From NCBI GenBank assembly GCA_964623415.1, contig CAZUUH010000002.1, positions 1 through 43,426 on the forward strand: 43,426 nucleotides of DNA, in the 5' to 3' direction. A model generated the notes under the pieces. The model saw only the letters and a list, made by a program, of their open reading frames with translations, did not search any database and was not told the origin of the DNA. The stretch is from an uncultured Candidatus Saccharibacteria bacterium (GTDB taxonomy: Bacteria > Patescibacteriota > Minisyncoccia > Phycocordibacterales > UBA9973). Shown piece after piece: positions 11,404 to 41,321 of this stretch (position 1 is the first letter of the stretch; each line of letters opens with the position of its first letter). The translations under genes were made by a program, and so were the position numbers.

Positions 11404-12603
11404 ATGAATAAAAATTTTCTTAAAAAATTAAATATTCCTAATAATCCTGGAGTATATTTTTTCAAGAAGGGGGAGAAGATTCTTTATATAGGTAAAGCTA
11501 CTTCTTTGCGCTCTAGGATTAAAAGCTATTTTAATAAAAATGTTATTACTAGTCGCGGAGAAATGATATTAGAAATGATTTTTAAGGCAGATAATTTAAA
11601 ATGGGAAAAAACAGATAGTGTGCTAGAAGCTATAATTCTTGAGGCTAGTTTAATAAAAAAATATCAACCTAAATATAATACAAAAGAAAAAGATAATAAG
11701 TCTTGGAATTATGTCTGTATAACAAAAGATGAAATTCCGAGAGTTACAATACAAAGAGCCAGGAACTTAAACAAGAAGAAATATAGTTCGATTTTTGGTC
11801 CATTTGTAAATGGAACTCTTTTAAGAGAGGCTATGAAAATAATTCGTCCAATTTTTCCTTATTTTGATGATGATTCACTTAGAAAAAATAATAAAGAATT
11901 TTATAAACAAATAGGTCTAGTTCCGGTTGATTCTTATAAAAATAATATAAAAAATTTTAAGTTATTTTTTCAGAGTAAAAAGAAAAATATTCTTGTTAAT
12001 CTTAAAAAAGAGATGATGATTTTTGCAAAAAAGAAAGAATTTGAAAAAGCAAATGAAGTAAAGAAAAGAATATTTGCATTAAATCATATAAACGATGTTT
12101 TTCTTATAAAAAATGAAATTTTATCAAATTTAGGTAAAAATGATTTCAGGATAGAAGCTTATGATGTAGCTCATATGTTTGGGAAAAATATGGTAGGAGT
12201 AATGACTGTTATAGAGAATGGAGAAGTTAACAAAAAAGAATATAGAAAATTTATAATAAAGACCCAAAATAAAGCAAACGATACTGGAGCATTAGAAGAA
12301 ATATTTTATCGTAGATTTAGGCATACGGAATGGAGATTGCCGAATATAATTGTTGTTGACGGTGGAATACAGCAGTGGAATAAAGCTAGATCTATACAAA
12401 AAAAGAATATTTTTTCAGAATCTAACATAACAATTGTTTCTGTGTTAAAAGACAATAAGCATAAACCAAAAGCTATTTTAGGTGATGAAAAAATAATTAA
12501 AAAATATAAAAAAGAAATATTACTTGCAAATAATGAATCACATAGATTCGCTATAACTTTTCATAAGAAAAAGAGAGATAAAAATTTTTTAAATATGGTA
12601 TAA
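11404..12603 (+). CDS. uvrC: Excinuclease ABC subunit C, short form (GIY-YIG + UVR + RNase H-like nuclease domain, no C-terminal HhH2)
   Basis: GIY-YIG block PGVYFFKKGEKILYIGKATSLRSRIKSYF, a UVR-like helix (KKEFEKANEVKKRIFALNHI) and RIEAYDVAHMFG...VVDGG. The protein ends at 399 aa. Confidence 0.85.
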   Translation: MNKNFLKKLNIPNNPGVYFFKKGEKILYIGKATSLRSRIKSYFNKNVITSRGEMILEMIFKADNLKWEKTDSVLEAIILEASLIKKYQPKYNTKEKDNKSWNYVCITKDEIPRVTIQRARNLNKKKYSSIFGPFVNGTLLREAMKIIRPIFPYFDDDSLRKNNKEFYKQIGLVPVDSYKNNIKNFKLFFQSKKKNILVNLKKEMMIFAKKKEFEKANEVKKRIFALNHINDVFLIKNEILSNLGKNDFRIEAYDVAHMFGKNMVGVMTVIENGEVNKKEYRKFIIKTQNKANDTGALEEIFYRRFRHTEWRLPNIIVVDGGIQQWNKARSIQKKNIFSESNITIVSVLKDNKHKPKAILGDEKIIKKYKKEILLANNESHRFAITFHKKKRDKNFLNMV

Positions 12604-14498: not shown

Positions 14499-15131
14499 TT
14501 ATAATTTATTTTTACGAAATAAATTTATTAAAGAAAATATATATCTGGTACCATTTTTGGATAAGTTAAATAAAATCGCAATTGTAAATAAGAGTATTGC
14601 TATGCTTGTGCTATAGAAAGAAACACAAACTGCAATAAGAGCAGACCCAACTGGGAACAATATATGCATGTTTGCATGTTCGTTTTCTGTTTTAGTGAAT
14701 GGTGTATTATCTATATTTTCTGATTTTATAGCATATTGTCTCATTCTAAACAAAACTAAACCTAAGAATATTATATTAAGTGCAAAGAAAATAACTGCAG
14801 TTTTTGATTCTAAATATTTTCCAAGAAAATCTGAAGAAAATGGAACTAATGCTACTAAACATAAAAATACCCCACTTATATTTGAGAACTTAATGTCGAT
14901 ATTTTTTGCAAGAACAGAAGCAATTATATGATGAGACCTCCAATAAGTGAATAGTAAAGAAAAACTCAAAATATAACTTAAAAATAATGGATACATTGAA
15001 ATAAGAGCATTGATAAAAACCATCTCGTTTGTAACGGGTGGTAAAGAGGGGACCCTTATCTCAAAAACTAAAATAGTCATAACGATAGCAAATATGCCAT
15101 CTGCGAGTTGGTCTAATCTTGATTGTTTCAT
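14499..15131 (-). CDS. TMEM175/DUF1211-family membrane protein (putative K+ channel)
   Basis: The signature RLDQLADGIFAIVMTILVFEIRVP at the start of TM1 matches the RxxxFSDGVFAI motif. The protein has about 6 TM segments. Confidence 0.7.
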   Translation of the reverse strand: MKQSRLDQLADGIFAIVMTILVFEIRVPSLPPVTNEMVFINALISMYPLFLSYILSFSLLFTYWRSHHIIASVLAKNIDIKFSNISGVFLCLVALVPFSSDFLGKYLESKTAVIFFALNIIFLGLVLFRMRQYAIKSENIDNTPFTKTENEHANMHILFPVGSALIAVCVSFYSTSIAILLFTIAILFNLSKNGTRYIFSLINLFRKNKL

Positions 15132-16243: not shown

Positions 16244-17716
16244 ATGTCTTTAAATAAACCAAATAAAATACAAATAATTAAATATGCTCCACCTCCTCCA
16301 GATTTACCAACCTTAGGTAATACTGATCCTAGGGATGCTGTTTTTATTGGAAGAACAAATTATGTTGCTGCTCTTGAAGAAAAGAAATTTATTTTTGGTA
16401 TTAAAAGAGTCGATAGAAGAAGGCATATGTATATAATAGGTAAGTCTGGTGTTGGTAAATCAAAACTTCAAGAATTGATGATTCGCCAAGATATCGCTTA
16501 TGGACAAGGTTTATGTATTATTGACCCACATGGAGAATTAATTGAAGATGTATTAAATTTTATTCCAGAAGAAAGAATTAATGATGTTTGTATTATAGAC
16601 CCTGGTGATATAAAATATCCATCATCATTTAATCCACTAGCTAATGTTGACCCAACTTTTAAGCATCAATTAACTCAAGGTTTGATTGAGGTTTTACGTA
16701 AACAATTTGGTGCAAACTGGACTCCTCGTTTAGAACATGTTTTTCGTTTTACTGTATTGGCATTGCTTGATTATCCTTATGCAACTATGCGTGGAATGAT
16801 AAGCTTGCTTACTGATCGTAACTATCGACAGAAAGTAGTTGAGTACATAGAAGATGATATGGTTAAAAGATTTTGGGCAATTGAATTTGCTGATTGGTCT
16901 GAGAAGTTTGACACAGATGCAATTATTCCTTTAGTTAACAAGCTTGGGCAATTTCTTTCTGATCCAATGCTTAGAAATATTTTTGGACAAAAAGAAAATA
17001 AAATAGATATAGAGAGATTAATGAATGAGAGAAAGATTCTTCTTATTAATTTATCAAAAGGGAAAATCGGAGAAGAGAACTCTTCTTTCTTTGGTGCAAT
17101 GTTTTTAACAAAAATAAAACAAGCAGGAATGGCAAGAGCAAGACTTGATCCTAAAGATAGATCTGATTTTTATCTTTACGTAGATGAGTTTCAGAATATT
17201 GTTACAGATACTTTTGAGAATATTCTCTCCGAAGCTCGCAAGTATGGTATAAATTTAATAATTGCGCATCAATATATCGCACAACTTTTACCAAAGGTTC
17301 AACAAGCCGTGCTTGGGAATGTTGGATCTATTGTTTCATTCCGTGTTGGTGGAGATGATGCTACAAAATTAAAACCCGAGTTTGCTCCTATTTTTGATGT
17401 TAAGGATATGATTAATCTTGGAATAGGTGAATTTTATATTAAAATGACAATAGATGGTGAAAGCTATGACCCTTTCTCTGCTGAAACTCTTCGTGTTCTT
17501 ACTCCAACCCATAGATCATATAGAGAGGAGGTTATAAATGCTTCTAGAAAAAAGTATGCTATTTTAGCTGATGATGCTGAAAAGTTAATAGCTGAAGAAG
17601 AGGCTACGATAATTAGATCTGCTCAAGAAAAATCTGCGATAACAGGTAATAAAAATAATAAAACACAAAAAGGAGGTTCTACTACTGAAGATAAAGAAAA
17701 AGAGCCACTAATATAA
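16244..17716 (+). CDS. Soluble TraD/VirD4-like (coupling-protein-like, FtsK/HerA-superfamily) P-loop ATPase, paralog A
   Basis: Walker A IIGKSGVGKS (nt 16439-16462), Walker B FYLYVDEFQN, and ILSEARKYGINLIIAHQYIAQL, which resembles the TraG/TraD C-terminal block. There are no TM helices. It aligns end to end with ORF 18635-20794. Confidence 0.7.
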   Translation: MSLNKPNKIQIIKYAPPPPDLPTLGNTDPRDAVFIGRTNYVAALEEKKFIFGIKRVDRRRHMYIIGKSGVGKSKLQELMIRQDIAYGQGLCIIDPHGELIEDVLNFIPEERINDVCIIDPGDIKYPSSFNPLANVDPTFKHQLTQGLIEVLRKQFGANWTPRLEHVFRFTVLALLDYPYATMRGMISLLTDRNYRQKVVEYIEDDMVKRFWAIEFADWSEKFDTDAIIPLVNKLGQFLSDPMLRNIFGQKENKIDIERLMNERKILLINLSKGKIGEENSSFFGAMFLTKIKQAGMARARLDPKDRSDFYLYVDEFQNIVTDTFENILSEARKYGINLIIAHQYIAQLLPKVQQAVLGNVGSIVSFRVGGDDATKLKPEFAPIFDVKDMINLGIGEFYIKMTIDGESYDPFSAETLRVLTPTHRSYREEVINASRKKYAILADDAEKLIAEEEATIIRSAQEKSAITGNKNNKTQKGGSTTEDKEKEPLI

Positions 17717-18634: not shown

Positions 18635-20794
18635 ATGAACAGCGAAATTCCACAAAATAGAGACATTACATATTTTGCCAAAACAAATTTTAGAAGTAGT
18701 AATTCTGTTTTTGGTATTAAAAGAAAAGACCGTAGACAGCATATGTATATACTTGGAAAATCTGGTACAGGTAAATCTGTTCTTATGTCTAATTTAATTG
18801 CTCAAAATATCCAAAATGGAGAGGGTGTTTGTGTTGTCGATCCCCACGGAGAGCTTGTTGAAGAAATATTAGAAATGATACCAGAGCATAGAGTTAATGA
18901 TGTAATCTATTTTAATCCTGCAGATATTGATTTTCATATTGGATTCAATGTTTTGCAAGTAGAAGACCCAAAATATAAACACTTGGTTGCTTCTGGTCTT
19001 ATGGGTATATTTACAAAGATTTGGGCAAATGCATGGAGTTCTCGTATGGAATACATTTTAAATAATGCGATTTTGGCTTTACTTGATACACCTGGCACAA
19101 CTCTTTTGGGTATTCCTAGGTTACTTGTTGATAAAGAATACAGACAAATGATCATAGGTAATCTAAAAGATCCCGTTGTTAAATCTTTTTGGATACACGA
19201 ATACGAACAATGGCGTGAACAGTTTCGTAATGAAGCAATAGCTCCTATTCAAAATAAAGTTGGTCAGTTTCTCTCTACGTCAATGATACGTAATGTTTTA
19301 GGACAGAAAAAATCAACCATCGATATTTTTAAAATAATGAATGAGGGTAAAATTTTTCTTGTTAACGTTTCAAAGGGTCGTATAGGAGAAGACAATTCTG
19401 CATTACTTGGTGGAATGATAATCACAAAGATACAGCTTGCTGCTATGGAGCGTGTACGTATTCCAGAAGATGAACGTAGGGATTTTTATCTTTATGTGGA
19501 TGAATTCCAGAATTTTGCAACTGAGTCTTTTGCGAATATTTTATCAGAAGCTCGTAAATATAGATTGAACTTAACAGTTGCTCACCAGTATATTGCTCAG
19601 CTCGAAAATAAAGATGGATCTAAGGTTTCTGACGCTGTTTTTGGTAACGTTGGAACGATGATAGTATTCCGAGTGGGAGCAGATGATGCAGACTTTTTAG
19701 AAAAAGAGTTTGAACCTGAATTTACAGCTCAAGATTTAGTTAATCTTCCAAATTATAATATATATTTGAAACTTATGATTGATGGAATAACCAGTCGACC
19801 TTTTTCAGCAACTACACTTCCTCCAATAAAAATTGATCGTTCTTTAGGGGTTAAGGATAAAATAATCGATGCTTCTCGTAAATTATATACTAGACCAAGA
19901 AAAGAAGTTGAAACTGAAATCGATAAATGGAGTGGGACACTTCAAACGAATGAAGGAGAATCAAGATATAAGGTTGATTGTTTTAATTGTAAAAAAATAA
20001 CGACTGTTCCATTTGAGCCCAAAGAAGGAAGGCCTGTTTATTGTAGGGATTGTATGAATAAAATAAAAAGTGGTGAGTTAAAGGCACAACAGGGTTTTAT
20101 TAATAACAATAATTATAATAATAATAGTAATAAAGTTTCTGTTGCTCCACTTGCTTCACTTGGTATTGAATTTGAAAATAAGGGTGTAGTTAAGAATAAA
20201 GATAAACAGACTCAGGTTGTCCAAAATAATAATCCTAAGAATCAAAACAGTAACAAAAACAATAAAAAATTTTTAGGACCATCACCACTTTTAAAAGGTT
20301 TGTTGCAGAAAATTGCCCAAGGTGATGAAAAAGTTATTAAAGATAAAGATTTAGAAATAGTTGAAGTTAAAAGACCAACAATCGAACCAATTTCTCTTTC
20401 TTCTCTTAAAAATAAAGAACCTAACAGAAATATCAATAACACAAAAGAAGCATCAGAAGAGAAAAAAGCTTCTCTTAAAAATTTTTTAGAGAAAATAAAT
20501 AAAACAGAAGGGGTTATAGAGAATGTAAAAGAAAATAATGGTAAAAAGTTAAATAATGTACCAGAATTAAAACAAGAACCAGAGTTAAAACAAGAACCAG
20601 AATTAGATCAAAAAATAGACAAAAAAGAAAACATGGTTGAAAAAATTAATATAGAAGAAGAAAAAATTAAAGAAGATAAGGTTGTAGAAGAAAGAAATCA
20701 ACAATCAGATAATAATATTAATAACCCATCTTGGCAAAAACCAAAAGCAAGAAAAGAGGTTCCCGAAGATGTTTTAAGAAAAATTTTAGAATAA
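18635..20794 (+). CDS. TraD/VirD4-like P-loop ATPase, paralog B, with C-terminal CxxC-x17-CxxC zinc ribbon and long K/E/N-rich tail
   Basis: Walker A ILGKSGTGKS, Walker B FYLYVDEFQN, ILSEARKYRLNLTVAHQYIAQL. The zinc ribbon CFNCKKITTVPFEPKEGRPVYCRDC is at nt 19979-20053. It is followed by about 245 aa of low-complexity tail. Confidence 0.72.
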   Translation: MNSEIPQNRDITYFAKTNFRSSNSVFGIKRKDRRQHMYILGKSGTGKSVLMSNLIAQNIQNGEGVCVVDPHGELVEEILEMIPEHRVNDVIYFNPADIDFHIGFNVLQVEDPKYKHLVASGLMGIFTKIWANAWSSRMEYILNNAILALLDTPGTTLLGIPRLLVDKEYRQMIIGNLKDPVVKSFWIHEYEQWREQFRNEAIAPIQNKVGQFLSTSMIRNVLGQKKSTIDIFKIMNEGKIFLVNVSKGRIGEDNSALLGGMIITKIQLAAMERVRIPEDERRDFYLYVDEFQNFATESFANILSEARKYRLNLTVAHQYIAQLENKDGSKVSDAVFGNVGTMIVFRVGADDADFLEKEFEPEFTAQDLVNLPNYNIYLKLMIDGITSRPFSATTLPPIKIDRSLGVKDKIIDASRKLYTRPRKEVETEIDKWSGTLQTNEGESRYKVDCFNCKKITTVPFEPKEGRPVYCRDCMNKIKSGELKAQQGFINNNNYNNNSNKVSVAPLASLGIEFENKGVVKNKDKQTQVVQNNNPKNQNSNKNNKKFLGPSPLLKGLLQKIAQGDEKVIKDKDLEIVEVKRPTIEPISLSSLKNKEPNRNINNTKEASEEKKASLKNFLEKINKTEGVIENVKENNGKKLNNVPELKQEPELKQEPELDQKIDKKENMVEKINIEEEKIKEDKVVEERNQQSDNNINNPSWQKPKARKEVPEDVLRKILE
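20561..20614 (+). repeat. In-frame tandem 18-nt repeat x3 (PELKQE/PELKQE/PELDQK) in the ATPase B tail
   Basis: The units are ccagaattaaaacaagaa, ccagagttaaaacaagaa and ccagaattagatcaaaaa, read directly from the sequence. Confidence 0.9.
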
Positions 20795-20797
20795 TTT

Positions 20798-22219
20798 ATG
20801 CCAATAAGGGAGGTAAAAATATTACTTTATATAATTGTTTTATTTTTATTTTTTATTTTTCGAGCGGATGCTAATATTTTTATAAACGAAATACAAATAT
20901 CTGATACTGATGATCGCTTTATAGAATTATATAATTCCTCAGATTCAATAGTTGATTTAACTGATTGGTATATACAAAGGAAAACAGCTACTGGTATTGA
21001 TTTTGGATCTTTGGTTTCAAAGACTTATTTTAATGGTAAAAGTATAAAAGCTTCTAGTTATTTTGTGATATCAAAAGGGGATTTTGGTGATATTATTTTT
21101 CCTAATTTAACTTTAACTGAGTCTAATTCAATTCAAATTAAAAATTCTAAGCAAGAGGTAGTTGATATAATTGGATGGGGAGATTCGCCTGATTGTAACA
21201 GTGTTTGTGATAATAATCCAATTACTGGTAAAAGTTTACAAAGGTTACCGGGTGGAGATTGGGTTATAGCAAACCCAACTATAGGTAAAAATAACTCATC
21301 AAATAGTTTTGTGGATGAAACAGAAGAAGATAAAGACCAATACGAAGATGAAAATATTGTTTTAAAAAAAGAAAATACAAAAGAAATTTTACCACTTAAA
21401 ATATCAACAAAAATATCTTCCCCAAAAATTATTACAGTTGGAGATCCTTTTTCTTTTAGTTCTAAGACGACAGATAATAGAGGGAAAACATATTATGTAG
21501 GTAGATTTATCTGGAATTTCGGTGATGGTAATAAAATTGAGGTAGAAGACTCTGGCCCGTTTGAGTATGTTTATGAATACGAAGGAGAATATATATTACA
21601 TTTAATGTATTTTGATAATGATTTCGCTGAAAATCCAGAAGCCACAGATAAAATTAAAATCAAAGTTATACCACCTAGTATATATATAAATAGTGTTGGA
21701 GATAATATTAATCCATATGTTGAATTAAAAAATAAATCTAAAGACGACATAGATATATCTGGGTGGTCTATTGTTACTGGTTATAGAATTTTTTCATTTC
21801 CTTATGGAACACTGATTCCTAGTGGTCAAACAATAAAACTACATAAGAGAGTAACTGGTTTTGATGAGTATGATATAGAATATTTAATAATTCAAAATCC
21901 AAGAGGTGATATAGTCTCTACTTATCCAGCATCTTCTAATTTTAAGGTAGGTAAAGTATTAGATTCTCAAAAAGTTATAGTTGATAAACCAAAAGAAGAA
22001 AATAAAGAGGATATTAAAAAAGAAGAAATAATTAATTTAAATAATTTAGAAGCAAGTGCAATAAAACAGGGTAAAGAGATAAATATATATATCATCGGTT
22101 TAGTTTCAGTTATCATTATTGGTATTTTGGGAGTATTATTTTTGAGAAAAAAATATGAATTTCAAAAAGACGATTTAGATGAAAATGTTAGTATTGATGA
22201 TATTAAAATAATAGAATAG
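20798..22219 (+). CDS. Membrane-anchored surface protein: signal peptide, lamin-tail domain, PKD-like domain, second lamin-tail domain, C-terminal TM
   Basis: LTD1 is IFINEIQISDTDDRFIELYNSSDSIVDLTDWYI. The PKD-like block is FIWNFGDGNKIEV...YEYEGEYILHLMYFD. LTD2 is IYINSVGDNINPYVELKNKSKDDIDISGWSIVTG. The C-terminal helix is IYIIGLVSVIIIGILGVLFL followed by RKK. The gene starts 3 nt after the ATPase B stop. Confidence 0.7.
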   Translation: MPIREVKILLYIIVLFLFFIFRADANIFINEIQISDTDDRFIELYNSSDSIVDLTDWYIQRKTATGIDFGSLVSKTYFNGKSIKASSYFVISKGDFGDIIFPNLTLTESNSIQIKNSKQEVVDIIGWGDSPDCNSVCDNNPITGKSLQRLPGGDWVIANPTIGKNNSSNSFVDETEEDKDQYEDENIVLKKENTKEILPLKISTKISSPKIITVGDPFSFSSKTTDNRGKTYYVGRFIWNFGDGNKIEVEDSGPFEYVYEYEGEYILHLMYFDNDFAENPEATDKIKIKVIPPSIYINSVGDNINPYVELKNKSKDDIDISGWSIVTGYRIFSFPYGTLIPSGQTIKLHKRVTGFDEYDIEYLIIQNPRGDIVSTYPASSNFKVGKVLDSQKVIVDKPKEENKEDIKKEEIINLNNLEASAIKQGKEINIYIIGLVSVIIIGILGVLFLRKKYEFQKDDLDENVSIDDIKIIE

Positions 22220-26281: not shown

Positions 26282-27790
26282 ATGATTGATTTACTATCAT
26301 CGATTTTAGCTATATTACCATTTGGTATTTTTGTTTTTCTTTTATTTTTTAAAAAGACAACTCTTCTAAAAGCCTCAATTGTTACTCTTGTGTTTTATAC
26401 AATATTTTCTATTTTTTACTGGCAAATTTTACCATCATTTTTATTTGTATCTTATATTAAAGGAGTACTCGTTGCAATTGATATATTTATAATTATTTTT
26501 GGAGCAATTCTTTTTCTTGAAATTCTTAAGAAATTGAAAATTTTAGATAATATTTCTAAATATTTATCTGGTATCTCTAGTGATTATAGAATTCAAATTA
26601 TTATAATTGCTTGGTTTTTTGAAGCATTTTTGGAGGGTACTGCTGGATTTGGTGTTCCTGGAGCTGTTGCTGTTCCTCTGCTTATGGGTCTTGGCTTAAG
26701 TCCTATAAAATCATTAATACTTGCTCTTATGGGTAATAGTAGTCCTGGTATTTTTGGAGCAGCTGGTACACCTATCAAGGTTGGTTTTTCTACTCTTAAT
26801 ACAACTTCTGTTCCTTTATATGCTTCTATTTTTAATTTTGTAGGTATTATAATACCAATTTTTATGGTTTTTATAGCAACATCTGGTAGAGAAAATAGAA
26901 AAAAAGAATTTTTGGAAGTTATTCCATTTGCTATTTGGTCAGGCTTGTTATTCTTCTTACCATCGTTTTTAATTACCAAATATATTGGTCAAGAATTTTC
27001 AACAATTTTAGGTTCAATTATTGGTTTAATTATTTTAATTATTTCAATTAAACTTAAAATATTTACACCTAAAAATAATTTAATTTTAACCCCGAAATTA
27101 GAAAATAAAGAAAAGGGTATTGGAATATTTAAATCTTTTTTACCTTACTTAATTTTAATTATTATTTTAATTCTTGGTAAAATATTTTTAGGTGACATAA
27201 GGATTCCAATAAACATTTTTATTTTGCATAATTTTTCCTTATTTAATCCTGGTTTTGCTTTTATTATTGCAGGAGTATCAATTTATTTATTGTTAGGGAA
27301 AAAAGTAAATAGTATTTTTAATAACGCATTAAGAGTTTCTATTAAAGGAGCTATTCCACCATTTCTTGTTATATCATCAATGCTTGCAATGGTAGAAATA
27401 ATGAAAAACTCTGGTTATAATTTATCCTTTTTACCATCAGCAATAGATATAATTGCTAGATTATTTGAATCATCTTTATTGCCATTTCTAGCTCCTTTTG
27501 CTGGGGCTTTTGGTTCTTTTATTACAGGTAGTGTTACGGCTTCAAATATAATGTTTGGATCTTTATTTAATATTGCTTCTATTAATATAGGTATCAATAG
27601 TGTTATTGTATTAGCTCTTCTTCTTGTTGGTGGTGGTATAGGTAATATGATTGCACTTGCTGATATCTTAACTGCAGAAGCTGTAGTTGGAGAAAAGAAT
27701 CTTGAAAGAAAAATAATTAAGGGTGTAATTATACCTTGTTTGTTGTGTCTTTTGTTAGCTGGTATCATAGGTTTAATAATTTTTAAATAG
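26282..27790 (+). CDS. L-lactate permease (LctP family)
   Basis: A polytopic membrane protein with the LctP-type block GTAGFGVPGAVAVPLLMGLGLSP and the C-terminal GGGIGNMIALADI block. Confidence 0.72.
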   Translation: MIDLLSSILAILPFGIFVFLLFFKKTTLLKASIVTLVFYTIFSIFYWQILPSFLFVSYIKGVLVAIDIFIIIFGAILFLEILKKLKILDNISKYLSGISSDYRIQIIIIAWFFEAFLEGTAGFGVPGAVAVPLLMGLGLSPIKSLILALMGNSSPGIFGAAGTPIKVGFSTLNTTSVPLYASIFNFVGIIIPIFMVFIATSGRENRKKEFLEVIPFAIWSGLLFFLPSFLITKYIGQEFSTILGSIIGLIILIISIKLKIFTPKNNLILTPKLENKEKGIGIFKSFLPYLILIIILILGKIFLGDIRIPINIFILHNFSLFNPGFAFIIAGVSIYLLLGKKVNSIFNNALRVSIKGAIPPFLVISSMLAMVEIMKNSGYNLSFLPSAIDIIARLFESSLLPFLAPFAGAFGSFITGSVTASNIMFGSLFNIASINIGINSVIVLALLLVGGGIGNMIALADILTAEAVVGEKNLERKIIKGVIIPCLLCLLLAGIIGLIIFK

Positions 27791-33986: not shown

Positions 33987-34340
33987 ATGTTTAAATATAT
34001 AAATAAAATGAAAGAAAAACCTGAGATTATTCGTAAACAATTTCTTTCGTTGGTTCTCGTTTTTTGTATGTTTATTGTAGGTGGTATTTGGGTTTTAGGT
34101 GTAACACATAAGGTTTCTTATAAAAAAGCTCAAGTAGAAATTACTGAATCAGATAAACAAATAAAACCATTAACCTTATTAATTGAATCTGCTAAAAATG
34201 CATATAATAATATTTCTGCTAGTGTTGCGGATGCTCCATCTTTATCTAAAATAAAAAAAGAAGTTGAATTATTAGACGAAACAAAAGTTGGGGGAAATAA
34301 AGTTGTTGACCTTATACCTGTAGAATATATTGAAGAATAA
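33987..34340 (+). CDS. Hypothetical membrane-anchored protein
   Basis: 117-aa ORF with one TM ([21 protein letters not shown]). I recognise no family. Confidence 0.45.
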
Positions 34341-34344
34341 AAAT

Positions 34345-36795
34345 ATGCCTAAAAAAGAAGAAGAAATAAAAAATAAAAATGTGGGTTTTATAGACGCTGA
34401 AATATCAAAAGAAATGAAAGAATGCTTCATTGACTACGCAATGTCGGTTATTACTGATCGTGCTCTTCCCGATGTTCGTGATGGATTGAAGCCAGTTCAT
34501 AGACGTATTTTATATGCTATGCATGAAATGGGTTTAACACACCAGGGTCGTTTTAGGAAAAGTGCAGCAGTAGTCGGAGATGTTCTTGGTAAATATCATC
34601 CACATGGAGATGTTGCAGTTTATGATTCTATGGTAAATATGGCTCAAAATTTTTCATATAGATATCCTCTTATACATGGTCAAGGTAACTTTGGTTCAAT
34701 CGATGGCGATGGTGCTGCTGCGATGCGTTATACGGAAGCTAAAATGTCGAAGATTTCATCTTTACTTTTACTAGATTTAGAAAAAGAAACTGTTAACTTT
34801 GTTTCTAACTATGATCAAACACGTAAAGAGCCAGTTGTATTACCAACTGGAGTTCCTAGTCTTTTATTAAACGGAACTCTTGGTATTGCTGTCGGTATGG
34901 CTACAAATATACCCCCACACAATCTTGGAGAAGTTGTCGATGCAACAATTCATTTGATTGATAATAAAGATGCAACCGCTGAAGATTTAATGCAATTTAT
35001 TAAGGGTCCAGATTTTCCTGTTGGAGGTATTGTTTATGGTTATTCTGATTTATTACACGCTTATTCTACTGGGAGAGGTGGAGTTGTAACTCGAGGTGAA
35101 GCTGAAATTGTTGAACAAAAAAGTGGTACATTCCAAATTATTATTACTTCTATCCCTTATCGTGTTAACAAAGCGACTTTGATAGAATCTATCGCTTCTC
35201 TTATTCAAGACAAAAAACTTGAAGGCATCAAGGGTTTGAGAGATGAATCTACTAAAGATATTCGTGTCGTGATAGATCTTAAGAATGGAGTTATTCCTCA
35301 AAAAGTTTTAAATTATCTTTATAAACACACCCAATTGGAACAATCTTTTAATTTCAATATTGTTGCTTTGGTTGATGGTGTGCCTCAGACATTATCTTTA
35401 AAAAGTTTGCTTAATGAGTTTATAGATCATAGGGGTGAAATTGTTAGACGTAGAACTGAATACGATTTAAGAAAAGCAAAAGATAGAGAGCATATACTTC
35501 TTGGTTTAAAGAAAGCATTAGATCATATTGATCGTGTTATTAGTGTAATTCGTGCGTCTAAAGATACTTCTGTCGCTAAATTAAATTTAATAAAAGAATT
35601 TAAGTTTTCTGAATTACAAGCAATTGCTATTTTGGAAATGAAATTGCAAAAATTAGCTGGTCTTGAAAGAAAGAATGTTGAGTTAGAATTAGCTGAAAAG
35701 CAGGCACTAATTAAACAATTGGAAGATTTGCTTTCTAATCCTAAAAAAATGATGAAAGTTATTTCTGATGAGCTTAAAGAAATAAAATCTAAATATTCAG
35801 ATGATAGAAAAACCAAAGTTATTAAAGGTGGGGTGAAGGCAATAAATGAAGAAGATTTAATCCCAGAAAAAGAATCAGTTTTGGTTTTTACTAAGGGTGG
35901 TTATGTTAAAAGAACTGATCCTTCTGAATACAGAGCACAGAGGCGTGGGGGAGTAGGTGTTATTGATATTGAAACAAAAGATGAAGACTTCGTCACAATG
36001 CTTATTACCGCAAATACTCACAGTGATTTACTTTTCTTTACTAATCTTGGAAAGGCTTATCAGATAAAGATGTATGATATTCCAGAAGGTAAAAGAGCTA
36101 CAAAAGGTAAGTCAATTATGAATTTCATTTCTTTAGATGGAGAAGAAAAAGTTACTTCAATTTTACCGATAGATAAAGAAACAAAAAAGGCTGTTGAAAA
36201 TTTAATGATGGTCACAAAGAAAGGTGTTGCTAAAAAGGTTGAAGCTGAAAGTTTCAAAGACGTAAGAAGAAGTGGTCTCATTGCTATCAAATTAGATAAA
36301 GATGATGAGTTGCAATCAGTTTTACCGATCTCTAAAGGAGACGATATTATGCTTGCCACATCAAACGGACAATCTATTAGATTTAAAGAAACAGATATTA
36401 GAGTAATGGGCCGAGGAGCTTCTGGAGTAAGAGCAATGAAGCTTGGGAAAGATGATTTTATTGTAGGTGTTGATCGTATTCAAAAAGGAGATGATTCTCT
36501 GTCTATTTTAACATTAGGATCTAATGGTCTTGGTAAAAAAACTAACATTAAAGAGTACAAGGTTCAGAAGCGTGGTGGTTCTGGTATTAAAACAGCAAAG
36601 ATAACAGCTAAAACAGGTAAATTAATTGTTGCAAAAATTGTTGCTGATGAAAATGAAATTATTGCTGTGTCTCAAAAAGGTCAGGTTATAAGGGTTAGTT
36701 TGGATTCTTTGCCAACTTCCGGAAGACAAACACAGGGTGTTACCGTAATGAAATTGCGTCCAGGTGATGGTATTGCTTCTATTACGTTTCTATAG
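34345..36795 (+). CDS. gyrA: DNA gyrase subunit A
   Basis: Contains [42 protein letters not shown] and C-terminal beta-pinwheel repeats. I chose the ATG at 34345 rather than the TTG at 34330. Confidence 0.94.
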
Positions 36796-36813: not shown

Positions 36814-36822
36814 TGGTATAAT
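36814..36822 (+). promoter_or_regulatory. Extended -10 box TGGTATAAT upstream of the methyltransferase/pilin-like operon
   Basis: TGGTATAAT ends 10 nt before the ATG at 36833. Confidence 0.45.
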
Positions 36823-36832
36823 GTAAATATAT

Positions 36833-37351
36833 ATGTTTAATAATCCAGAACAAAATATTCTACATTTGGGCTTAAAAGAGGGTATGATTGTAGCTGACTT
36901 TGGAGCTGGCTCTGGTTTTTATGCTAGAGCTTGTAGTGATAGAGTTGGTGTAAGTGGTAGAGTTTATGCTATTGAAGTTCAAAAGGAATTAGTTAAAAAA
37001 CTAGAGAATGATTTAAAAAATTGGGGTATTCCAAATATTGATTGTATTTGGGGTGATATAGAAAAAATCGGGGGAACTAAAATTGGTAGTGGTTCCGTTG
37101 ATGCAGTTATTCTATCTAATGTTTTGTTTCAGACAGAAGATAAACTTGGTGTAATTGATGAGTCTAAGAGGGTTCTTAAAAGAAGAGGTAAGGTTTTAGT
37201 TATTGATCGTAATGAAGCTTCTGGTTTGGGAAGTGGTTATTTTATTGGAGAAAATGATTTAAAGTCTTTGTTTGAAAAAAGAGGTTTTAAATTTACAGAA
37301 AAAATAGCAACAAACGGAAGTCATTATGGTATAATTTTTACATATGAATAA
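36833..37351 (+). CDS. Class I SAM-dependent methyltransferase
   Basis: Motif I is MIVADFGAGSGFYA. Post-I and motif II-like blocks (VYAIEV, DAVILSNVL) are present. 172 aa. Confidence 0.75.
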   Translation: MFNNPEQNILHLGLKEGMIVADFGAGSGFYARACSDRVGVSGRVYAIEVQKELVKKLENDLKNWGIPNIDCIWGDIEKIGGTKIGSGSVDAVILSNVLFQTEDKLGVIDESKRVLKRRGKVLVIDRNEASGLGSGYFIGENDLKSLFEKRGFKFTEKIATNGSHYGIIFTYE

Positions 37352-38654
37352 TTTCCAAACAATTTTAGTTGGTATATTTCTAGCATTCTTTGTTTTTGGA
37401 GTTTTAGTTTTTTCTGGAGCTATTGATTTAGATTTTAATAAAGATAAAGAAGAGGCTCAAGGTTCCATTACAATTTGGGGCCTTTTCCCTAGTTCTTCAA
37501 TGTCTGGAGCAACTGAAAAGATAATATCAGAAAATAAAAATTTAAGAATTAAATATGTACAAAAAGATGCATTATCTTATCAAGAAGATCTAGTTGATGC
37601 ATTTGCTAAGAATGAAGCACCTGATTTATTTTTTATTACTCCCGATATGGTAATGGAAAATAGTAGTTTTATTTACAAAGTATCTTATGAATTTTTTCCC
37701 AAAAAAGATTTTAATAGTTTGTACATAGATGGATCTAGTGTTTACTTGGATAACAATGGAGTATGGGCATACCCGGTTTTAGTTGATCCAATGGTTATGT
37801 ATTACAATAAGGATATGTTATTAAACAATAACATTGTGTATCCTCCAGTAACTTGGGATGAATTATTTGGTTTAAATTCCTCTTTAACAAAAAGTAATAA
37901 TTTAGGTGTTATTTCTGAAAGTATGATTGCTTTAGGTCAGTATAAGAATGTTAATAACGCTAAAGATATTCTTGCAACTCTTCTTATTCAAAATGGTAAT
38001 AATATCATAGATTATAAAGATAATTCTTATTCGTCACTTCTTTCAAGTAATTTAGAAAATTTAAATATTACTCCAGCAGAATCTGTTATAGCTTTCTTTA
38101 ATGAATTCTCAAATCAATCAAAAATGGCCTATTCTTGGAATAGTTCTATGCCTAATTCTTTAGATAGTTTTACTTCTAGTAAATTAGCTTTTTATTTAGG
38201 TAAAGCAAGTGAATTATTTAATATTAGTTCGATTAATCCTAATTTAAGTTTTGACGTTGAGAGAATTCCCCAAATAAAAGATTCTGGAGTTAAAAGTACT
38301 GTTGGTGATATTTATGCTATTGCAACTAACAAGAGGTCTTCAAATATATCATCTGCTCTTAGGGTTGCAACTATTTTGTCTTCAAACAAGGATGTTGTTA
38401 AGGATATTTCAATTCGTTTATCGTTACCACCAACATTACGTTCTATATTAAACGATAAACCTAAGGATAACCCATACCTGCAAACATTTTTTGAATCAGC
38501 ATTGATTACTAAAAGTTGGAGAGATCCCAATAAAATCAAATCTAATAATATATTTAAAGAAATGATAGAAAATGTTTTGTCGAATAATTTACCAATTAAA
38601 GAATCGATAAATAGAGCTGAGAGTCAATTAAATCAGCTTTTAAAAAATTCTTAA
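37344..38654 (+). CDS. Membrane-anchored extracellular solute-binding-protein-like protein (SBP family 1 fold), orphan
   Basis: An N-terminal TM, then ITIWGLF, APDLFFITPD and PVLVDPMVMYYNKDML...YPPVTWDELF, which are typical of sugar-type ABC substrate-binding proteins. It overlaps the methyltransferase gene by 8 nt. No permease or ATPase gene is nearby. Confidence 0.65.
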   Translation: MNNFQTILVGIFLAFFVFGVLVFSGAIDLDFNKDKEEAQGSITIWGLFPSSSMSGATEKIISENKNLRIKYVQKDALSYQEDLVDAFAKNEAPDLFFITPDMVMENSSFIYKVSYEFFPKKDFNSLYIDGSSVYLDNNGVWAYPVLVDPMVMYYNKDMLLNNNIVYPPVTWDELFGLNSSLTKSNNLGVISESMIALGQYKNVNNAKDILATLLIQNGNNIIDYKDNSYSSLLSSNLENLNITPAESVIAFFNEFSNQSKMAYSWNSSMPNSLDSFTSSKLAFYLGKASELFNISSINPNLSFDVERIPQIKDSGVKSTVGDIYAIATNKRSSNISSALRVATILSSNKDVVKDISIRLSLPPTLRSILNDKPKDNPYLQTFFESALITKSWRDPNKIKSNNIFKEMIENVLSNNLPIKESINRAESQLNQLLKNS

Positions 38655-38657
38655 AAT

Positions 38658-39668
38658 ATGATCAATAAAAAAATAAAATTTATCCTTTTGGCATTTACGA
38701 TTCTTTTACCTTTTTTGTTTCAATCTTCAGTTTCTGCAGAGATTTTGTTTTCTTCTTTTAGTCCTAGTTCTGCAAAGGTTGGTGATATTATAACGATTTC
38801 AGGTCAAGAATTTTTTAATATAAATAAAGTCTTTTTTAAGAATATAAACGGTTCTAATATTGAGGCATATATAATTGCTATTAATGAAAATTCTATAAAA
38901 GTTAAAGTTCCAGAAAATGTTGGAGATGGTAAAATTACTATTCAGACTGTAAAGACTGGTGGTATTACCAATGAATATACTTCTTCACAAATATTCAAAA
39001 CATTCATGCCTTCGTTTGATTTTTCACCTAAGAGTGGTAAAGAAGGAGATGAGGTTGTTATTAGTAGTAATGATAATATTTCAGGTGTGAGTGCTGTTTT
39101 ATTTGGAGGTGTATCTTCTATACCAATAATTAATAATGAAAATTTTATTCAAGTACTTGTTCCTAGGAATGCTAAAACTGGTAAAATAATTATTAAGACG
39201 GATAAATATGGTGATGTTGCAAGTTTAATTGATTTTAGATTAGAAGATATTTTAAATAGTTCTACAACAACTGGAAATGTTATAGATAAACAGAAAGAAG
39301 ATGTATCGTTAGATTATAATCATCCAACAATAAAATTTAATGGTATTGTTCCTATTTGTAATGTTGATGGAATAAATGAAAAGACTGGAGATTACATTAA
39401 TAACTGTGATTTTGAGGATTTAATGGCTTTAGTCAATAAATTTATTAATTTTATTTTAATAACTTTAGCTACACCACTTTTTGCATTAATAATGATATAT
39501 GTAGGGTTTATATATTTGACTTCTGGTGGTGACTCAGGAAAGATATCTTCTTCGAAGAAGATATTTCAGAATGCTTTTTTGGGTTATATTATTGCTTTAG
39601 CTTCTTGGTTAATTATTAAAACAATCTTAACTTCATTTGGTTATGTTGATATAAGTAAGTGGTTTTAA
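38658..39668 (+). CDS. Signal peptide + 2x IPT/TIG domains + C-terminal VirB2/TrbC-like (CPR T4SS-pilin-type) two-TM domain
   Basis: Signal peptide ends in SVSA-E. The TIG repeats are FSPSSAKVGDIITISGQEF...VPENVGDGKITIQT and FSPKSGKEGDEVVISS...VPRNAKTGKIIIKT. The C-terminal block is IVPICN...NNCDFEDLMALVNKFINFILITLATPLFALIMIYVGFIYLTSGGDSGK...FLGYIIALASWLIIKTIL. Confidence 0.65.
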   Translation: MINKKIKFILLAFTILLPFLFQSSVSAEILFSSFSPSSAKVGDIITISGQEFFNINKVFFKNINGSNIEAYIIAINENSIKVKVPENVGDGKITIQTVKTGGITNEYTSSQIFKTFMPSFDFSPKSGKEGDEVVISSNDNISGVSAVLFGGVSSIPIINNENFIQVLVPRNAKTGKIIIKTDKYGDVASLIDFRLEDILNSSTTTGNVIDKQKEDVSLDYNHPTIKFNGIVPICNVDGINEKTGDYINNCDFEDLMALVNKFINFILITLATPLFALIMIYVGFIYLTSGGDSGKISSSKKIFQNAFLGYIIALASWLIIKTILTSFGYVDISKWF

Positions 39669-39689
39669 ATTATTATTTAATTTTATTCT

Positions 39690-40097
39690 ATGAAAATTTT
39701 TAAAGATAAAAAATATACATTTTTTTCAAAATTATTAAAAGGAGGATTGATTTTTGTATTTGCTTTTTCTGTATTTCTACCAGGTGTTATTGTTTATAGT
39801 GATCAGACTGTGCAAACAAAAATCGAAAATCCATTAGGAGAAAATGGTCCGCAAGATATACCAGATTTTATCGATAGAGCAATTGATATTGTGTTGGTTG
39901 TAGGTGTACCTATTGTTGTTCTTGCTATAATATATAGTGGTTTTCTTTTTGTTTCTGCACAAGGAAATTCTGAAAAACTTAAAAAAGCAAAGCAAGCAAT
40001 TTTATATAGTATTATAGGAGCAGTTTTACTTTTAGGGGCGTTTGTTATAGCAAATGCTATTTCAGATACGGTTAAAGATATAGAGAAGGGTGCTTAG
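39690..40097 (+). CDS. Small VirB2/TrbC-like pilin-family protein (signal/anchor + two TM helices)
   Basis: 135 aa. A hydrophobic leader is followed by IPDFIDRAIDIVLVVGVPIVVLAIIYSGFLFVSAQGNSEKLKKAKQAILYSIIGAVLLLGAFVI. Confidence 0.55.
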   Translation: MKIFKDKKYTFFSKLLKGGLIFVFAFSVFLPGVIVYSDQTVQTKIENPLGENGPQDIPDFIDRAIDIVLVVGVPIVVLAIIYSGFLFVSAQGNSEKLKKAKQAILYSIIGAVLLLGAFVIANAISDTVKDIEKGA

Positions 40098-40143
40098 TTA
40101 CAATAATGGTCGATTATTTAAATAAAGTTTATTTATAAAAATT

Positions 40144-40473
40144 ATGAATATATTACCAATTGCAGAAGCTGCAGGACCAGTAACAGATATAACAAGTTTA
40201 ATAACATTCTTATCTGATATATTATCGAATGCGATTCTTCCTCTTCTTATAACACTAGCTGTCATAGGTTTTGTCTTTGGAATTATAAAATATTTAGTTG
40301 CAGGAGATAATGAAGAAAAGCGTAAGAAGGGTAAGGAATTTATGACTTGGGGTTTGGTATCTTTATTTGTTATGGTTAGTTTCTGGGGGATAATATCAAT
40401 TTTTCAGAAATCATTTAATGTAACAGAAGATGGAAGTAATATTAGGATTCCGAGGATTCCAGAGTCAAATTAA
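40144..40473 (+). CDS. Small VirB2/TrbC-like pilin-family protein
   Basis: 109 aa: LPLLITLAVIGFVFGIIKYLVAGDNEEKRKKGKEFMTWGLVSLFVMVSFWGII. It is a paralog of the two following ORFs. Confidence 0.6.
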   Translation: MNILPIAEAAGPVTDITSLITFLSDILSNAILPLLITLAVIGFVFGIIKYLVAGDNEEKRKKGKEFMTWGLVSLFVMVSFWGIISIFQKSFNVTEDGSNIRIPRIPESN

Positions 40474-40495
40474 GCTTGTTCTAGTATTGTATTAT

Positions 40496-40504
40496 TGTTA
40501 TAAT
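40496..40504 (+). promoter_or_regulatory. Internal extended -10 box TGTTATAAT (a second TATAAT at 40521-40526) upstream of the ORF at 40566
   Basis: Read directly from the 92-nt spacer between two pilin-like genes. Confidence 0.35.
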
Positions 40505-40565
40505 ATATAGAGAGTTTGTTTATAATTATTAGTTTGGTCGCTTATTATTAAGAATTTAAAAATAT

Positions 40566-40919
40566 ATGAAAAAATTTGTATTATTTGGTTTAGTTTCATC
40601 TTTTTTGCCAGTTGCAGCTTTTGCAGCAGCAGATTTGGGTGATGTTTTAGCAAAACTTATAGGTTATCTTAACTATATTGTTCCGGCATTGATTACTGTT
40701 GCTGTGGTTTACTTTGTTTGGGGAGTTATTTCTTTTATTACTTCAAGTGAAGAAGAAGCTAAGAAAAAAGGTAAAACAAAGATAATCAATGGTCTTATCG
40801 GCTTATTTGTTATTGTTTCTTTCTGGGGAATTATTGCTATAGTTCAAAGAAGTTTAGAAGTTAATCCTTATCCATCTGGAGATATTGTTCCAGATGTTCC
40901 TACAAGAATTAATAATTAA
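40566..40919 (+). CDS. Small VirB2/TrbC-like pilin-family protein with classical signal peptide
   Basis: 117 aa. The signal peptide is MKKFVLFGLVSSFLPVAAFAAA. It is followed by VPALITVAVVYFVWGVISFITSSEEEAKKKGKTKIINGLIGLFVIVSFWGII. Confidence 0.62.
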   Translation: MKKFVLFGLVSSFLPVAAFAAADLGDVLAKLIGYLNYIVPALITVAVVYFVWGVISFITSSEEEAKKKGKTKIINGLIGLFVIVSFWGIIAIVQRSLEVNPYPSGDIVPDVPTRINN

Positions 40920-40922
40920 TTT

Positions 40923-41192
40923 ATGAATTTATTTTTTACACCTATAGCTGAAGCAAGTGCGCAAACATTAATGAATAGTATAAATAAGGTTATAATTAAT
41001 CCACTTATTATTCTTTTGTTTTCTTTAGCTGTTGTGTACTTTATTTTGGGGCTTGTTAGATATCTATTATCTCCAGACAATGAAGATGTTAGAAAAACAA
41101 GTAAATCTCATATGTTTTGGGGTTTGGTAGGAATATTTATCATGCTTTCAGTTTATGGCATATTAAATATAATAGTTAATACTCTATCTTAA
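40923..41192 (+). CDS. Small VirB2/TrbC-like pilin-family protein
   Basis: 89 aa: INPLIILLFSLAVVYFILGLVRYLLSPDNEDVRKTSKSHMFWGLVGIFIMLSVYGIL. It starts 3 nt after the previous stop. Confidence 0.6.
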   Translation: MNLFFTPIAEASAQTLMNSINKVIINPLIILLFSLAVVYFILGLVRYLLSPDNEDVRKTSKSHMFWGLVGIFIMLSVYGILNIIVNTLS

Positions 41193-41212
41193 CTTACAAA
41201 CCCTTAGTATAC

Positions 41213-41244
41213 AAAAGACATCAGGCACGCCTGATGTCTTTTGT
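41213..41244. terminator. Strong bidirectional terminator closing the pilin-like operon (and the tRNA-Glu gene on the other strand)
   Basis: AAAAGACATCAGG-cacg-CCTGATGTCTTTT, a stem of about 13 bp, flanked by ACAAAA and TTTTGT. Confidence 0.75.
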
Positions 41245-41246
41245 AT

Positions 41247-41321
41247 TGGTGACCTTACCGGGAATCGAACCCGGATTACCGGCTTGAAAAGCCGATGTCC
41301 TAACCGTTAGACGATAAGGCC
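41247..41321 (-). tRNA. tRNA-Glu (anticodon UUC), CCA encoded
   Basis: The reverse complement is GGCCTTATCGTCTAACGGTTAGGACATCGGCTTTTCAAGCCGGTAATCCGGGTTCGATTCCCGGTAAGGTCACCA. Acceptor is GGCCTTA/TAAGGTC and the anticodon loop is TTTTCAA. Confidence 0.88.

Follow-up and report, generated by a model that had tools for sequence, protein, structure and literature searches.

The pilins of type IV secretion systems (T4SS) in Patescibacteria were surveyed by Quinonero-Coronel et al. 2025 (PMC12102498), who searched 3,035 Patescibacteria genomes with the Pfam families T4SS_pilin (PF18895) and TrbC/VirB2 (PF04956). Of the assemblies that bear VirB4, 1,948 had pilin genes; these genes are near virB4 in 1,135 of the 1,948 and away from it in the other 813 (~40%). 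They also described 441 arrays with a mean identity of 25%, each of which has 2-11 genes from PF18895 or PF04956 that are in tandem or one gene apart and have low mutual identity, as well as 5,713 VirD4-like coupling proteins, which are almost never near virB4. Here we describe an array of this kind in a stretch of 43,426 nucleotides (nt; hereafter, the window) from contig CAZUUH010000002.1 of an uncultured Candidatus Saccharibacteria bacterium. In a unit of seven genes, a methyltransferase (MTase) that depends on S-adenosylmethionine (SAM) and a solute-binding protein (SBP) are followed by five putative members of PF18895: a large protein with IPT/TIG domains (the TIG-pilin) and four small proteins (p1 to p4).

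In Southlakia epibionticum, the one genetically tractable Patescibacterium, a series of pilin genes in the T4SS cluster (SEML1_0014-0019) is essential (Wang et al. 2023; PMC10633639), and the T4SS that contains this array is essential for epibiotic life. A 2025 review describes the Patescibacterial T4SS as the first T4SS of a monoderm with the potential for pili. Also, PF18895 genes rank among the genes of unknown function with the highest expression in cultured Paceibacteria.

By the standard of the published survey, the tandem array in the window, its distance from VirB4, and the presence of two VirD4-like ATPases are all typical. An earlier note on this DNA had described the tandem array; such arrays are already a published feature of Patescibacteria. 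What goes beyond the literature that we searched is the fixed set of paralogs, the modularity of the ectodomains, and, most of all, a conserved SBP partner, which is often accompanied by the MTase. On balance, we think it probable that the unit is a Patescibacterial T4SS pilin module that is detached from its ATPase cluster, with five non-redundant subunits of a mixed structure, an adhesin-like ectodomain, and a MalE-like partner.

Five putative T4SS_pilin proteins

All five of the hairpin proteins match PF18895, and four of them are above the gathering cutoff of 26.6 bits (Table 1). The earlier note had named this accession, and it is indeed T4SS_pilin; the four proteins that pass the threshold are the mini-pilins p1 to p4. 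The TIG-pilin is below the cutoff, and many of its orthologs have a precomputed match to PF18895. On our own hidden Markov model (HMM) of the pilin core, which includes the TIG-pilin's sequence itself, its C-terminal domain scores 90 bits. No further open reading frame (ORF) in the window matches the pilin-core HMM.

Each of the five proteins has two hydrophobic helices that are joined by a loop rich in lysine and arginine, as judged from hydropathy and loop charge. In AlphaFold models, the two helices span residues 16-52 and 57-90 of p2 and residues 252-288 and 293-326 of the TIG-pilin. Hydropathy and AlphaFold thus agree with the earlier note, which had described the last five proteins as sharing an architecture of helix, charged loop, and helix. 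The TIG-pilin, p1, and p3 have an N-terminal signal peptide, and p2 from the window does not. The p4 orthologs in loci L007-L011 have a short leader, M-x(3-5)-IIP[IV]AEA-S, with an AxA-type site before the serine and without a hydrophobic core (this corresponds to 40923-40960 in the window). The PIAEA motif is also found in the N terminus of the window's p2 (40144-40175), while the p2 proteins of L009 and L010 have a full signal peptide.

The hairpin proteins fall into two types. The loop is G[ND]S[EG]K in the TIG-pilin and p1, and it is DNEE..K in p2, p3, and p4, which also have a WG..WGI motif. This differs from the subtypes in the earlier note, which had separated the fusion protein from the other four: the TIG-pilin groups with p1, apart from p2-p4. 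A comparison with hhalign shows that the two types are homologs (94%, E = 1.5e-7). The mini-pilins had also been described as free of cysteines. This is true in the window, but the p2 and p3 orthologs of sister genomes carry Cys pairs.

A distinct SBP next to the pilin genes

The SBP matches PF13416 at residues 63-377 (43.5 bits) and has one N-terminal transmembrane (TM) helix (residues 7-25). In a profile search of the PDB, the matches were to trehalose/maltose- and maltodextrin-binding proteins, namely 1EU8, 1ELJ, and MalE, with E values from 1e-10 to 1e-8. In distant orthologs of the SBP, the TM anchor is replaced by a lipobox.

A distinct orthogroup of SBPs is found directly upstream of the pilin array in every evaluable locus. 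We scanned species-representative genomes with an alignment of the SBP and annotated the resulting loci with local HMMs. A pilin gene begins 2-50 nt after the SBP gene in all 24 loci that have enough downstream sequence. Nineteen of the 24 contain the gyrA-MTase-SBP unit and the full array (L026 has four pilins, and L017 is cut by the end of the contig). The remaining loci are distant, with SBPs that are 24-29% identical and with different flanks; they include L034 from Falkowbacteria (2 pilins), L036 from Moranbacteria (2 pilins), L037 (10 pilins), and L038 (5 pilins). A scan of metagenomes was led by the distant SBPs, and SBP-pilin adjacency was found in 23/23 evaluable loci with orthologs, at GC contents from 0.30 to 0.65. 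(The two sets overlap, as some of the metagenome loci are duplicates of genome loci.) As controls, we examined 54 SBP loci from outside the Patescibacteria (926 kb), which had no pilin match, and ~45 loci with ordinary SBPs from metagenomes, which had no pilin.

The SBPs that are linked to pilins are also set apart by their HMM scores, which are bimodal: 337-576 bits for the linked proteins versus 134 bits or less for the others, with an HMM that was built from pilin-linked sequences and favors them. When proteins are clustered at 50% identity, the orthogroup comprises at least 1,363 clusters that reach E <= 1e-30. We considered whether the adjacency might be inherited synteny with gyrA, and we rejected this explanation because the linkage persists in distant loci that lack gyrA. 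We found no ABC (ATP-binding cassette) permease or ATPase in the window or within 10 kb in L007-L012, L036, L037, or L038, and the SBP does not appear to be part of an adjacent ABC importer.

The papers and supplements that we searched do not mention a link between PF18895 pilins and either an SBP or an MTase, although this does not prove that no such report exists. The earlier note's statement that an MTase and an SBP with pilins is not a known T4SS arrangement agrees with this search.

In L037 and L038, the SBP-pilin locus is surrounded by genes for polysaccharides (glycosyltransferase, Wzy, and flippase). In both loci, an NTP-transferase gene is directly 5' of the SBP gene (8644-9513 in L037 and 7336-8202 in L038), which is the place of the MTase in the window's clade. 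An NTP-transferase gene is also found just downstream of the window (L181 881-1642). These neighbors hint at a cell-surface glycan context. Several of the metagenome-assembled genomes (L015, L019, L022, L025, L028-L030, L037, and L038) are labeled as "uncultured Candidatus Saccharibacteria" or "Gammaproteobacteria" despite having a Paceibacteria-type locus; these labels look unreliable.

The MTase has no TM segment. We rejected any specific assignment for it, as the matches in NCBIfam and the PDB were to generic class I enzymes (ArsM-, PIMT-, or UbiE-like). The MTase gene is directly 5' of the SBP gene in most of the Paceibacteria-type loci and in L036 from Moranbacteria. It is absent from the distant loci L033, L037, L038, L106, L108, L118, and L123.

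Conservation of the array

The order gyrA, MTase, SBP, large pilin, and four mini-pilins recurs in contigs whose TIG-pilin homologs are 37-55% identical (the L012 contig ends after two pilins). The earlier note had made its interpretation depend on conservation of the cluster, and the unit does recur across related genomes and metagenome contigs.

The window's five paralogs are 18-45% identical to each other, and, as five consecutive genes, they fit the published definition of an array. Across genomes, proteins from the same array position are 54-70% identical, versus 22-38% for proteins from different positions, and the order of the positions is the same in at least 25 genomes. Given this difference between within-position and between-position identity, the five pilins are ancient paralogs that have become fixed, and their order is conserved. 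Fast evolution is confined to the ectodomain of the TIG-pilin (compare its two identities in Table 1). We considered recent duplication or antigenic variation and rejected it because orthology is position-specific. Position-specific orthology also contradicts the earlier note's idea of antigenic diversification, insofar as this would come about by turnover of the paralogs. To our reading of the searched literature, the fixed set of orthologous paralogs has no counterpart there. It predicts a mixed structure in which each subunit has a defined role, rather than a set of interchangeable variants.

Optional and modular ectodomains

From N to C terminus, the TIG-pilin has a signal peptide/helix, two Ig-like IPT/TIG domains, a disordered linker, a Cys pair (C234 and C250, which are invariant), and the PF18895 hairpin. 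The AlphaFold model has a mean pLDDT of 81, with two beta-sandwiches at about residues 30-115 and 120-195 (pLDDT above 90). Using Foldseek with the ectodomain as the query, we found the glycan-binding SGBP-B proteins of Bacteroides and the IPT domains of Met and plexin (E = 3e-8).

The surface domains that are fused to the pilins are optional and modular, which goes beyond the literature that we searched. We compared the first pilin across 17 species representatives: it is short in 12 (under 160 amino acids and without an ectodomain) and long in 5. In sister species, the ectodomain may be absent, swapped, or on another subunit. For instance, the p4 orthologs in L020, L023, and L026 have C-terminal extensions of 250-400 amino acids. 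The domains that are added to pilins are TIG, LysM, FN3, and DUF5018, and some of the added regions, which can reach 1,858 amino acids, have no annotation. These modular ectodomains point to a possible seat of host specificity. Among the more unusual proteins are fusions to huge unannotated ectodomains (630-1,858 amino acids), fifth-position pilins with C-terminal extensions, and proteins with two tandem pilin domains; these large, extended, or double pilins are found in L118 (11255-16831), L114 (2160-6009), and L020 (9670-11148) and in L033, L036, and L038.

Relationship to VirB2, TrbC, and other pilins

The hairpin proteins are best regarded, from their profile matches, as members of PF18895, and we were unable to demonstrate that they are homologous to classical VirB2/TrbC. 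Of the five, p1 alone matches PF04956 (21.2 bits, E = 3.5e-4), and this is under the cutoff of 27.9 bits; the other four have no match. In hhalign comparisons with eight annotated VirB2/TrbC proteins from plasmids, the p2-p4 type reached a probability of 1.6% and the p1 type reached 0.5%, with alignments that were shallow (Neff of 1.8-2.9) and hence of limited sensitivity. When we compared the model of p2 to the PDB with Foldseek, which discriminates poorly among short helical hairpins, the best E value was 0.67 and none of the top 50 matches was a T4SS pilin. A profile from the five pilin domains had only chance matches to PDB sequences, in which TM hairpins aligned to G protein-coupled receptors (E of 0.1 or worse). 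The earlier note's proposal that the proteins match VirB2/TrbC pilins was therefore not borne out by PF04956, hhalign, or Foldseek. Because these matches failed, the label "VirB2-like" or "pilin" rests on the Pfam name, the topology, and the gene context.

Outside of Pfam, the best curated match is NF045849, the Mbov_0395 family of pilin-like conjugal transfer proteins from an integrative and conjugative element (ICE) of Mycoplasma. The scores of 35.2 bits for p1 (E = 7e-9) and 29.4 bits for p2 (E = 4.5e-7) fall short of the curated cutoff of 40 bits, so the two proteins are related to this family but not members of it. The Mycoplasma match and the failed VirB2 match both bear on the origin of the PF18895 pilins.

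Genes for T4SS components

Pfam scans of all of the large ORFs in the window and in the 5 kb downstream of it found no VirB4, VirB11, VirB6, or PrgI; the downstream 5 kb contain FtsZ and FtsA and no VirB4. This agrees with the earlier note, which had stated that VirB4, VirB11, and VirB6 are not in or beside the unit. The note went on to describe the assembly route as unexplained. It is true that no assembly ATPase adjoins the unit, but because the pilins are away from virB4 in ~40% of the pilin-bearing assemblies, this is a common situation. The window also encodes two VirD4-like ATPases, which are 16-20 kb upstream of the pilin unit. This number matches the published average per genome and is thus typical. 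The VirD4-like ATPases are followed by a secreted-type protein with lamin-tail and PKD domains (20798-22219).

In one lineage only, the MTase-SBP-pilin block lies inside a T4SS cluster. In L036 from Moranbacteria, the order is MTase, SBP, two pilins, PrgI, a 228-amino-acid protein, and a VirB4-type ATPase, with ComM and a G5/DPBB lytic transglycosylase further on. The metagenome contigs L101 and L102 share this arrangement.

Interpretation

The matches to PF18895, the hairpins, the position of the block beside PrgI and VirB4 in L036, and the likeness to NF045849 all support a T4SS pilin module, as do the PF18895 array inside the essential T4SS cluster of Southlakia, the position-specific orthology, and the linkage of the SBP to the pilins. 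Such a module would descend from conjugation machinery of the monoderm MPF_FATA type. The five hairpins would insert in the membrane with the basic loop on the cytoplasmic side and the two termini on the outer side, and they would be drawn from the membrane by machinery of the VirB4/PrgI/VirB6 type, whose genes we infer to lie in another part of the genome. This would yield a surface structure of mixed subunits, either a pilus or a short stalk. The two Ig-like domains of the TIG-pilin would be displayed outside as an adhesin or as a glycan-binding module. The MalE-like SBP would be a dedicated partner of the pilins, most likely as an extracytoplasmic receptor or an assembly factor that sits at the base of the pilus or stalk, and the upstream MTase is a probable, if less certain, accessory. 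The SBP also offers a concrete handle on the system, since it would be soluble, expressible, and screenable for ligands and partners.

A bolder version is that the SBP, and perhaps the MTase, is an integral component of the T4SS pilus in most of the Patescibacteria outside Saccharimonadia, where it would couple the recognition or capture of a carbohydrate on the host surface to the assembly or function of a mixed pilus of five subunits. PF18895 would then be an ancestral family of monoderms (with MPF_FATA and the Mycoplasma ICE) and not a VirB2 that was borrowed from diderms. We consider this version possible but doubtful.

Several observations weigh against a pilin module. VirB4, PrgI, and VirB6 were not found in the window or in the 5 kb downstream. 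An SBP module that adjoins VirB4 is seen in one lineage only, and the T4SS cluster of Southlakia (Saccharimonadia), which was studied by transposon sequencing (Tn-seq), has no SBP. Profile or structural likeness to solved or genuine VirB2/TrbC pilins was not detected. Fusions of 630-1,858 amino acids are hard to fit in a filament, except as rare subunits or tip subunits. Also, to our knowledge, no filament of PF18895 proteins has been visualized in any Patescibacterium.

One alternative is that the hairpins do not form a filament. They could instead make up a hetero-oligomeric platform that stays in the membrane, anchors or displays extracellular modules, and docks the SBP at the surface. A platform would accommodate fusions that occur at either extracellular end and that are very different and very large (TIG, LysM, FN3, DUF5018, and up to 1,858 amino acids), and it fits with the generic helical hairpin seen by Foldseek, with the lack of likeness to VirB2 profiles, and with the usual location of the module far from VirB4. 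Yet four of the five subunits in the window, and all five in many of the sister genomes, have no ectodomain and are nevertheless 54-70% conserved, so anchoring alone is not sufficient to explain them. Two further points argue for pilins: in both L036 and Southlakia, the genes adjoin PrgI and VirB4, and the proteins resemble a pilin-like conjugation protein of a Mycoplasma ICE. We consider a platform unlikely. We give even less credence to the idea that the hairpin proteins and the SBP comprise a new binding-protein-dependent uptake system, with the hairpins as the conduit through the membrane. It is the case that the SBP is always accompanied by hairpin genes and in no annotated locus adjoins an ABC permease or ATPase, that five hairpins would provide ten TM helices, and that Patescibacteria rely on imported nutrients (PMC12102498). 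But the number of hairpin genes per locus varies, from at least 2 to 10, and ectodomain fusions and double-domain proteins are a poor fit to a transporter of fixed stoichiometry. No energizing component is linked to the genes, and the family is tied to VirB4 and PrgI and resembles the Mycoplasma ICE protein. We would be surprised if uptake were the function.

Other alternatives concern how the genes came together. The SBP and the MTase might be mere inherited neighbors of the pilins, with an SBP that serves an ABC sugar importer encoded elsewhere and an MTase that is a housekeeping enzyme beside gyrA. In the window's clade, the entire block from HisRS to GyrA is syntenic as well, which makes adjacency alone weak evidence there; moreover, the MTase is absent from several distant loci, the SBP gene is preceded by a promoter-like box of its own, and the Saccharimonadia T4SS lacks the SBP. 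What makes this explanation improbable is that the adjacency of SBP and pilin genes survives changes of gyrA, of the MTase, and of the flanks, with GC contents of 0.30-0.65, SBP identities down to 24-29%, and gaps of 2-50 nt. Furthermore, the linked SBPs are a sharply separate orthogroup, and in L036 the MTase-SBP-pilin block is found beside VirB4 without gyrA. For the MTase alone, we rate inheritance as a neighbor higher than for the SBP and the MTase together. Finally, the array could be a diversification cassette of recent, fast-evolving duplicates that allows for antigenic variation or for switching of host range, as has been proposed for the VirB2 paralogs of Bartonella and Anaplasma. The published survey proposes such a reading for Patescibacterial arrays (PMC12102498), the window's paralogs are only 18-45% identical, and the ectodomain of the first pilin evolves quickly (40% identity for the whole protein versus 61% for the pilin domain). 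In contrast, the positions are orthologous groups that keep the same order across genomes whose GyrA proteins are 82-97% identical, and the order is held in L030 and L031 despite an SBP identity of only 33%. Recent duplicates and pseudogene cassettes are absent, and the variability lies in the fused ectodomains instead of in paralog turnover. For the window's clade, this reading is already contradicted, and we think it very improbable in general.

Locus layout and expression signals

As the earlier note had it, seven genes on the + strand at 36833-41192 follow each other with overlaps or tiny gaps, and all of the ORFs were found at the coordinates that it gave. From the MTase to p4, the intergenic spacings are -8, 3, 21, 46, 92, and 3 nt. 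The gene upstream of the unit is gyrA. The window has a low GC content (~29%), and the rest of its content is the housekeeping genes of a reduced genome. Homologs of the unit's proteins carry the labels Paceibacterota or Nomurabacteria. Other genes in this reduced genome include a homolog of the TMEM175-like potassium channels (14499-15131, - strand) and an L-lactate permease (26282-27790).

Table 1. Features of the window, with mean identities of orthologs where these were computed.
Feature	Coordinates	Strand	Evidence or location	Mean ortholog identity
VirD4/TraG-like coupling-protein ATPase 1	16244-17716
VirD4/TraG-like coupling-protein ATPase 2, with CxxC-x17-CxxC zinc finger	18635-20794
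GyrA	34330-36795			87.5%
Extended -10 box TGGTATAAT, candidate leaderless-type promoter	36814-36822	+	10 nt 5' of MTase ATG
MTase, small cytoplasmic class I SAM-dependent methyltransferase, 172 amino acids	36833-37351	+	Methyltransf_11 at 1e-13	64.5%
Second TGGTATAAT box, candidate separate SBP-pilin promoter	37327-37335	+	inside MTase 3' end, 8 nt 5' of SBP ATG
SBP, membrane-anchored MalE-like (family 1/8) solute-binding-protein homolog	37344-38654	+	SBP_bac_8 at 4e-11	60.7%
TIG-pilin ("BIG"), position-1 large pilin	38658-39668	+	TIG at 5.5e-7; PF18895 21.7 bits	39.9% (whole protein); 60.8% (pilin domain)
p1, position-2 pilin, 135 amino acids, signal peptide and GNSEK-loop hairpin	39690-40097	+	PF18895 37.1 bits	62.4%
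p2, position-3 pilin, 109 amino acids, hairpin with DNEEKRKKGK loop	40144-40473	+	PF18895 43.8 bits	54.5%
TGTTATAAT box, possible internal promoter, weak evidence	40496-40504	+	61 nt 5' of p3
p3, position-4 pilin, 117 amino acids, signal peptide and hairpin	40566-40919	+	PF18895 36.5 bits	59.0%
p4, position-5 pilin, 89 amino acids, short conserved leader and hairpin	40923-41192	+	PF18895 27.0 bits	70.2% (most conserved paralog)
17-bp perfect hairpin, probable bidirectional terminator	41209-41225 / 41230-41246	.	between p4 stop and tRNA-Glu
tRNA-Glu(ttc) gene, convergent, abuts hairpin	41247-41321	-

The motif TGNTATAAT is enriched in the window, with 18 copies versus 5.25 expected, and 18 copies were reached in none of 100 shuffles. 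Nine of the 18 copies are 3-13 nt 5' of start codons, which has a chance of ~0.007 per motif. (Examples of these boxes are at 12596, 15139 on the - strand, 18613, 22248, 31323, 33337, 36814, 37327, and 41847.) None of the seven genes in the unit has a clear Shine-Dalgarno sequence. The short distance from TGNTATAAT to the starts and the lack of Shine-Dalgarno sequences suggest leaderless or short-leader transcripts, at least for the nine genes with TGNTATAAT near the start.

The box that the earlier note had placed at 36814, upstream of the MTase, is present there as TGGTATAAT. A single operon of seven genes with a single promoter is plausible, but it is not established, because a second TGGTATAAT precedes the SBP gene. 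The terminator that the note had proposed (a 13-bp stem at 41213-41244) is real, but the stem is longer: it is a perfect hairpin of 17 bp that spans 41209-41246. The hairpin has a dG of -30.1 kcal/mol (z = -6.96), and none of 200 shuffles folded as well. Since it adjoins the convergent tRNA-Glu gene, it probably ends transcription in both directions. A general scan of the unit for sigma-70 promoters and terminators was rejected: it gave 29 sites versus 31 expected, which is not above chance, and it missed the real hairpin. We used the targeted fold and the enrichment test for TGNTATAAT in its place.

Comparison with known systems

The closest described systems are the Patescibacterial arrays (PMC12102498; PMC10633639). 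Like the array in the window, these are tandem sets of small, divergent, two-TM proteins from PF18895, and they are chromosomal with no relaxase nearby. Unlike the published arrays, the one described here has five fixed, orthologous positions, a dedicated SBP and SAM-dependent MTase, and a first member that is fused to IPT/TIG domains. SBPs, MTases, and ectodomain fusions are not mentioned in either of the two papers.

The VirB2/TrbC pilins and the F-type TraA pilins are of similar size, and they share the two-helix hairpin and the basic connecting loop. Some of them have an N-terminal signal peptide, and some pathogens have arrays of paralogs. But the VirB2/TrbC and TraA pilins belong to the T4SS of diderms, whereas the host here is a monoderm, and unlike the VirB2/TrbC genes of the reference plasmids, this array has no adjacent VirB1 or VirB3. 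The NF045849 protein of the Mycoplasma ICE is, like the proteins here, a small hairpin protein, and it comes from a monoderm conjugation system. To judge from the family's name, it belongs to a mobile conjugative element, whereas the array in the window is a chromosomal set of five genes with an SBP.

The SBP shares its fold and a conserved YYNKD...TW.E motif with the MalE-type SBPs of ABC importers, and it is tethered to the membrane, as SBPs of monoderms are. Unlike those proteins, it has no adjacent permease or ATPase in any of the loci that we annotated, it belongs to a separate orthogroup, and it is always followed by pilin genes. SBPs without their own transporter are also tied to a monoderm T4SS element in the conjugative plasmids of enterococci, whose PrgZ and TraC proteins bind pheromones. 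PrgZ and TraC are peptide binders of family 5 (OppA-like) that have a regulatory role and use the host's Opp permease. In comparison, the SBP described here is MalE-like (family 1/8) and of the carbohydrate type, and its gene is directly 5' of the pilin genes.

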